A DNA stretch of 64,000 bases, from assembly GCF_057098645.1 (NCBI RefSeq), contig NZ_CM169472.1; one strand, 5' to 3'. A program made the translations under genes and the position numbers. This document shows, one piece after another, positions 9,209-9,753 of the stretch. The notes below the pieces were generated by a model, which was not told the origin of the DNA, did no database searches, and worked only from the letters and a program-made list of their open reading frames with translations. The first letter of the stretch is position 1. Each line of letters opens with the position of its first letter.

Positions 9209-9402
9209 CGCCTTCTTCCTCCGTAATGGTTTTCTGAATTTGGCCACCTGAACAGAGCTCACCAAAGCTATGGATGTCGGTATTTCCACAATACCAAGAT
9301 GGCGAAAATAACTGCATGATAAGCCTCAGGGAAAAGGGAAGACACTACCCCCGATAATTCAGAAACAAATCGAAATACATGAACTAAAGAAAAAATCACA
9401 AC

Positions 9403-9438
9403 AAATAGAAACAGAAATAGAAATAGAAATAGAAATAT
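9403..9438. repeat. Tandem hexamer repeat (AAATAG/AAACAG) x6
   Basis: Direct reading: aaatag aaacag aaatag aaatag aaatag aaatat. Confidence 0.7.
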
Positions 9439-9753
9439 TAAAACAGACCACCACATTCCTGATGTCATACTCACTAAACAATTTTTCGACAACATGGTTG
9501 CTCATAGCATGTTATCGTGTAGACACCCTCTGCTACGTATTCGGTGTTCAGTGCAATATCTACAAATACTGGAAAAATCTAAAATCGAGGCAAGTTTTTA
9601 GTGATAACTATAGTTAGACTATATTGACGACCTGATGTGCTGTATGTAATAATTAACAAAAAATATTTTCCATGGGATTTTTTATTTTAATGAAATGCAA
9701 AATATTTTTATCAATAGTTAGTATTATGGAAAACCATTAATTCAGGAGGAAAC

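Follow-up and report, generated by a model that had tools for sequence, protein, structure and literature searches.

A hexanucleotide repeat in a lambdoid nin region corresponds to the Escherichia coli typing locus VNTR-9 and is probably without a regulatory role

Introduction

Promoter-associated contingency repeats include the TAAA repeat upstream of nadA in Neisseria and the TA repeat in the promoter spacer of hif in Haemophilus. Both are short-unit, slippage-prone, intergenic repeats upstream of a horizontally acquired gene. They are located within the core promoter, or between the promoter and a mapped regulator site, and the resulting changes in expression have been measured. The tract described here shares the first set of features. 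In contrast, it lies far from any predicted promoter and varies equally where the downstream gene is missing.

A repeat of this kind in E. coli O157:H7 was reportedly named TR1 by Noller et al. in 2003, Vhec4 by Lindstedt et al. in 2003, and O157-9 by Keys et al. in 2005. These names are synonyms of VNTR-9, and the unit given for VNTR-9/Vhec4 is 6 bp (PMC3768571, PMC3321953). The TR1 unit is AAATAG, amplified with the primers ACTGCATGATAAGCCTCAGG and CACTGAAGCCTGTTCCGTTC (PMC2246123, Table 2), while PulseNet amplifies VNTR-9 with GCGCTGGTTTAGCCATCGCCTTCTTCC and GTGTCAGGTGAGCTACAGCCCGCTTACGCTC (PMC8461963, PMC3321953). VNTR-9 alleles span 6 to 23 repeats, with 15 alleles and a diversity index of 0.90 (PMC3321953), and during serial passage in vitro approximately 4e-5 changes per generation occurred, altering whole units (PMC3777172).

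Here, we analyzed a repeat in a 64-kb window (64,000 nucleotides of contig NZ_CM169472.1, RefSeq assembly GCF_057098645.1; all positions are those of the window). Locus identity, copy-number variation, flank constancy, and position relative to the genes were established in this analysis, while the mutation rate and the slippage mechanism are taken from the literature.

Results

The original prediction described six AAATAG-like units in an AT-rich noncoding gap between an HNH endonuclease gene and a gene for a 590-aa protein, and this description was confirmed by the sequence itself, by Tandem Repeats Finder, and by simulation (Table 1). Tandem Repeats Finder reported a period of 6, 5.8 copies, 93% matches, a score of 63, and the consensus AAATAG for positions 9403 to 9437. 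The window carries a short allele, interrupted by AAACAG in unit 2. The longest run of exact period-6 self-match in the window was 19 bases, starting at position 9413, whereas the runs in 100 simulated sequences of 64 kb reached at most 12 (local AT-rich composition) or 10 (whole-window composition). These data indicate that the repeat is real and is not a chance product of AT richness. It is the sole short-period array within the 64 kb, and the GC content between 9200 and 9800 ranged from 0.26 to 0.41. The predicted gap length of approximately 460 bp held for the longest version of the HNH open reading frame (ORF), which begins at a GTG codon (464 bp, 9290 to 9753), but not for the ATG start annotated in RefSeq at position 9208, which is preceded by GGAGGAAGAAGG and leaves a gap of 545 bp (9209 to 9753). 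Analysis of inverted and direct repeats in the gap revealed no operator-like pattern involving the tract, and an Rfam search at a permissive threshold returned just two sub-threshold matches to miRNA families, both far from the tract.

Table 1. Features of the repeat locus and its surroundings in the window
Feature	Position	Strand	Remarks
HNH endonuclease gene	8642..9208	-	Pfam HNH_3, E 5.5e-11; RefSeq start 9208; left neighbor of the gap
VNTR-9 forward primer GCGCTGGTTTAGCCATCGCCTTCTTCC	9193..9219	+	Exact match, single site; overlaps 5' end of the HNH gene
Minus-strand ORF, (Phe-Leu)n	9268..9495	-	Crosses the tract
TR1 forward primer ACTGCATGATAAGCCTCAGG	9311..9330	+	Exact match, single site
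Minus-strand ORF, (Ile-Ser)n	9359..9505	-	Crosses the tract
Microsatellite	9403..9438	.	AAATAG, AAACAG, AAATAG (three times), AAATAT: six AAATAG-like units; matches MLVA locus VNTR-9/TR1/Vhec4/O157-9
IS30 insertion dinucleotide AC	9450..9451	.	12 bp after the tract; empty in the window
Sole sigma-70-like match in the gap, TTGACG-18-AATAAT	9624..9653	+	186 bp downstream of the tract; scan by consensus only
590-aa gene, function unassigned (PHROG 9230)	9754..11526	+	AT-rich cargo gene, opposite in direction to the phage early transcript; right neighbor of the gap
IS629/IS1203-type inverted-repeat end	11886..11913	+	Real truncation point of the prophage early region
Transposase ORF of IS629/IS1203-type element	11928..12818		

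Comparison with the published typing assays showed that the window contains both forward primer sites exactly, as does the left flank of VNTR-9 in O157:H7. The TR1 and VNTR-9 reverse primers (CACTGAAGCCTGTTCCGTTC and GTGTCAGGTGAGCTACAGCCCGCTTACGCTC) were absent from the window at up to 2 to 3 mismatches. In contrast, both matched the O157:H7 locus L002, within an IS30 element that in O157:H7 follows the tract after 12 bp; in the window this site is empty and is followed by the 590-aa gene. The window locus is thus orthologous but lacks IS30, and the missing reverse primer sites are a feature of the assay and not of the repeat. Up to the IS30 junction, window positions 9200 to 9437 shared 99.6% identity with O157:H7 genomes, and homology to 9200 to 9900 ended at the end of the tract in the O157:H7 genomes among the matches listed. 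The two loci also share the AAATAG unit, variation in copy number by whole units, and a prophage context with HNH, NinG, phosphatase, and Q genes to the left. The unit, the exact forward primers, the reverse primers within the IS30 of L002, and the published synonymy together identify the tract as the orthologue of the standard MLVA locus. From these sequence matches it is close to certain that the tract is the long-known prophage microsatellite VNTR-9, a fingerprinting marker for pathogenic E. coli. The repeat itself is already known, and nothing new is left to discover about it.

The IS30 site was occupied in different ways in other strains. O157:H7 keeps the left IS30 end at the AC dinucleotide, where GACCAC runs directly into TGTAGATTCAATTGG (L002, near position 3265), and strain SMN152SH1 keeps the right IS30 end at the same dinucleotide, where GAATCTACA runs directly into AC (L004, near position 2496). 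The DNA beyond IS30 differs between O157:H7 and SMN152SH1. These junctions suggest that a single IS30 insertion at 9450 to 9451 was followed by IS30-mediated rearrangements.

The original prediction had proposed that the tract might vary by strand slippage and that its copy number be compared among related isolates. A 701-bp query (9200 to 9900) matched 523 of 5,426 complete E. coli genomes, with at least 80% query coverage in 244 of these. When a BLAST query across the tract was used (9320 to 9452), the alignments ended within the repeat and gave no counts; longer queries with a strict E value were used instead, and units were read directly from the window and 16 fetched loci (17 copies), the terminal AAATA(T) being counted as one unit. 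The count was not invariant: it ranged from 4 to 19 units over the 17 copies, while the flanks were nearly invariant. The lowest count came from a chicken isolate (4 units, L008), followed by the window and L003 (6 units each), the O157-type locus L012 with IS30 after the tract and the Escherichia albertii locus L017 (7 each), O157:H7 L002 and O145 L013 (8 each), O26:H11 strain 11368 (9; L006), and O111:H- strain 11128 (10; L007). EDL933 (L009), L014, and L016 had 11 units each, and the longest alleles had 14 (L010), 15 (L011), 16 (L015), 17 (L005), and 19 (L001) units. Match spans were consistent with these readings, in that they stepped by 6 bp from 688 to 731 bp in the sampled non-O157 strains (701-bp query) and from 495 to 531 bp in the sampled O157 genomes (501-bp O157 query); long alleles split the alignment in about one-third of the sampled records. 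Two Stx1-converting phages also carried the locus, with spans that imply approximately 18 and approximately 8 units.

Outside the tract, only about 15 sites varied within the 545-bp gap (11 alleles). Variant units recurred at characteristic positions. AAACAG was the first unit in L001, L005 to L008, L015, and L016, which include O26:H11 strain 11368 and O111:H- strain 11128, whereas it was unit 2 in the window and unit 7 in L011; in O145, unit 7 was AAGTAG. Such interruptions mark lineages. The E. albertii array was pure, with its 7 units, while the flanks were just 91% and 85% identical. The wide range of unit counts between near-constant flanks, together with the published record of a hypervariable MLVA marker, supports the proposal of a slipped-strand-variable tract.

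The genes to the left of the gap are all on the minus strand and, by Pfam, encode antiterminator Q (6783 to 7406), a Ser/Thr phosphatase, NinG, and the HNH endonuclease. The region is the nin region of a lambdoid prophage, whose early transcript reads leftward in the window. Intact relatives carry NinB, Dam methylase, and NinE, followed by the 590-aa gene on the other strand, the repeat-bearing gap, and then HNH, NinG, phosphatase, and Q. A stretch of 42 to 46 bp at 9180 to 9225 corresponds to the ninF/ninG junction of lambda and many lambdoid phages and covers the first codons and the ribosome-binding site of the HNH gene, which indicates that this gene uses the original ninG start. It seems that the HNH gene entered the 5' end of ninG by insertion and adopted the ninG start as its own. 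Just inside the HNH gene, at 9150 to 9190, there is a 20-bp tandem duplication (two copies of CTTTTACAGTTAAATCGTCT). By this sequence comparison, a cassette made up of the tract, a leader of approximately 300 bp, and the 590-aa gene occupies the position of lambda ninF between ninE and HNH/ninG. The edge of the cassette against lambda-like sequence is at approximately 9225, so that the tract lies approximately 180 bp inside it.

The prophage is truncated to the right of the cassette. NinE is missing from the window, and the position at which intact relatives have it, 11886, is occupied by the inverted-repeat end of an IS629/IS1203-type element. Beyond the transposase ORF of this element lies a truncated ypjA/EhaD autotransporter gene. 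The window contains two IS629/IS1203-type elements in like orientation, with ends at 917 to 944 and 11886 to 11913; the second has taken the place of the early region of the prophage, starting just ahead of ninE, and abuts the ypjA/EhaD gene (13193 to 17083), which has 12/24-bp tandem repeats at 13308 to 13409.

Searches with the 590-aa protein returned no match in Pfam, NCBIfam, or PADLOC, and its only PHROGs match was annotated as unknown function. A profile search against PDB sequences found no match with an E value below 0.1, and the AlphaFold2 model was unusable (mean pLDDT, 41). The homologues, none of which has a name, were confined to E. coli, E. albertii, Salmonella, and Providencia; these host genera are enteric bacteria with type III secretion. 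On the basis of these sequence relationships, it is plausible that the protein is a candidate unnamed type III secretion system effector. We also considered whether the gene encodes the named effector EspV and set this assignment aside: the papers listed treat espV as a separate marker gene, and the RefSeq product of the 590-aa gene is hypothetical everywhere.

Several further observations were made on this gene. In E. albertii, a paralogue with 72% identity is located at a prophage end, with nleF and a HopF/AvrPphF-like gene as neighbors. The N-terminal part of the protein contains a repeated motif, LTLNDFLDN, with more copies in the Salmonella consensus. PHROGs has separate families for the N- and C-terminal halves, and in O111:H- strain 11128 (L007) and RM9131 (L016) the homologue of the 590-aa gene, which begins at position 851 and 857, respectively, is a 933-nt (310-aa) RefSeq product; the gene therefore seems to be split in some lineages. 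Approximately 45 bp after the stop codon, at 11556 to 11623, there is a strong hairpin (GTGTATGCGAC pairing with GTCGCATACAT) that is probably the terminator of this gene, and one of the two sub-threshold Rfam matches, a spurious one, falls on it.

Discussion

The explanation that we favor is that the tract is VNTR-9 as found in lambdoid EHEC prophages, that it varies by slippage, and that it is neutral; we place the probability of this explanation as a whole at roughly 0.88. Slipped-strand mispairing of the 6-bp repeats during replication would lead to the gain and loss of units, and copy number would then differ between close isolates while the flanks stay constant. The tract lies in noncoding AT-rich DNA at the edge of a cargo ("moron") cassette in the phage nin region. 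A pure array that changes by whole units between constant flanks is the pattern that slipped-strand mispairing produces, and slippage is the mechanism assigned to such loci in the MLVA literature (PMC3777172). The weaker part of this explanation is the absence of function, which we infer from the position and distribution of the tract; it is probably without a regulatory role. The purity of the array in the diverged E. albertii copy could reflect selection or self-renewing slippage. Since slippage alone can keep an array pure, this purity is weak evidence for function and against neutrality.

A different role would follow if, as the original prediction suggested, the tract affected promoter spacing. 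It would then be a contingency locus of the phase or rheostat type, whose copy number alters promoter distance, helical phase, or an UP-like element and so tunes the 590-aa gene. The tract is indeed hypermutable, lies upstream of and co-oriented with this gene, has remained a pure array in E. albertii even though the flanks there have diverged, and is followed closely by a weak extended -10-like sequence, TGtCATACT, at 9463 to 9471, which was noted by eye and gave no hit with any tool. However, 316 bp separate the end of the tract from the TTG start codon at 9754, and in a consensus scan of the gap the tract occupied neither a -35/-10 spacer nor a core promoter element, so that an effect on promoter spacing is unsupported. 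The only promoter-like site that was recovered, 186 bp farther downstream, exists because of a C-to-T change at 9653 that is private to the window and converts AATAAC to AATAAT; the other alleles (10 of 10) read AATAAC, and the same scan of the L001 allele gave no promoter-like match. The distribution of the tract also argues against this role. The O157:H7 locus has IS30 after the tract and lacks the 590-aa gene, and still the number of units there ranges from 7 to 15 or more, which indicates that the variability of the tract is a mutational property independent of the gene. Conversely, no such tract was found upstream of the 590-aa homologues in the E. albertii effector island (L018) or the Salmonella cdd islet (L022), where the upstream DNA is unrelated, and our literature search found no paper linking the VNTR-9 locus to expression. 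We therefore consider a contingency locus unlikely. A related idea, that the tract is a tunable cis element for the candidate effector gene, strikes us as very unlikely. In such a scheme, a plus-strand transcript of the form (AAUAGA)n would present a perfect series of A-R-N triplets, which the distal face of Hfq binds, or the DNA would act as an A/T-rich segment, UP-like or H-NS-nucleating, and the level of expression would depend on its length. Judged from the sequence, some regulatory effect on the 590-aa gene at a distance is possible.

Two further readings concern what the tract itself consists of. A protein-coding role, for which we see hardly any likelihood, would make the tract part of a small minus-strand protein with a variable (Ile-Ser)n or (Phe-Leu)n segment, since the 6-bp unit keeps the frame. 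Both ORFs that cross the tract share the orientation of the phage early transcript, PGAP annotates a hypothetical protein, the (Ile-Ser)n ORF, across the long alleles of L001, L005, and L015, and an older annotation of EDL933 placed the VNTR inside Z3935/Z3936 (PMC3321953). The annotation appears, however, only where the repeat itself makes the ORF long enough. Neither ORF has a PHROG match or a Shine-Dalgarno sequence ahead of its ATG, L014 has lost 1 bp at 9395, which puts both frames out of register, and in O157 the IS30 element cuts off both start codons while the tract persists. We regard the tract-crossing ORFs as probable artifacts of the repeat. Translational phase variation by frame switching was ruled out separately, given the 6-bp unit and the location of the tract outside both the HNH frame and the 590-aa frame. 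The original prediction had offered, as another option, a recombination or deletion scar marking the truncated edge of the prophage, a reading to which we assign next to no probability. The prophage in the window is truncated, and in other strains the IS30 target lies close to the tract. However, the intact prophages L001, L003, and L017 carry the tract in equal flanks, as do the Stx1-converting phages SH2026Stx1 and AU6Stx1; the truncation in the window is the IS629 end, 2.4 kb from the tract; and the junction of the cassette with lambda-like sequence lies approximately 180 bp from the repeat. The scar reading is already refuted by the intact relatives.

A slippage-variable and probably neutral VNTR-9 tract thus accounts best for the locus, and the repeat that was picked out from the raw sequence is one that has served public-health laboratories for two decades in the subtyping of E. 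coli O157 outbreaks. The adjoining uncharacterized 590-aa gene deserves more interest than the repeat. For typing, the sequence predicts null alleles with the classic primer pairs for VNTR-9 and TR1 in IS30-empty strains such as this one, and the empty IS30 site may account in a simple way for some of the null alleles that are often reported at the VNTR-9 locus.
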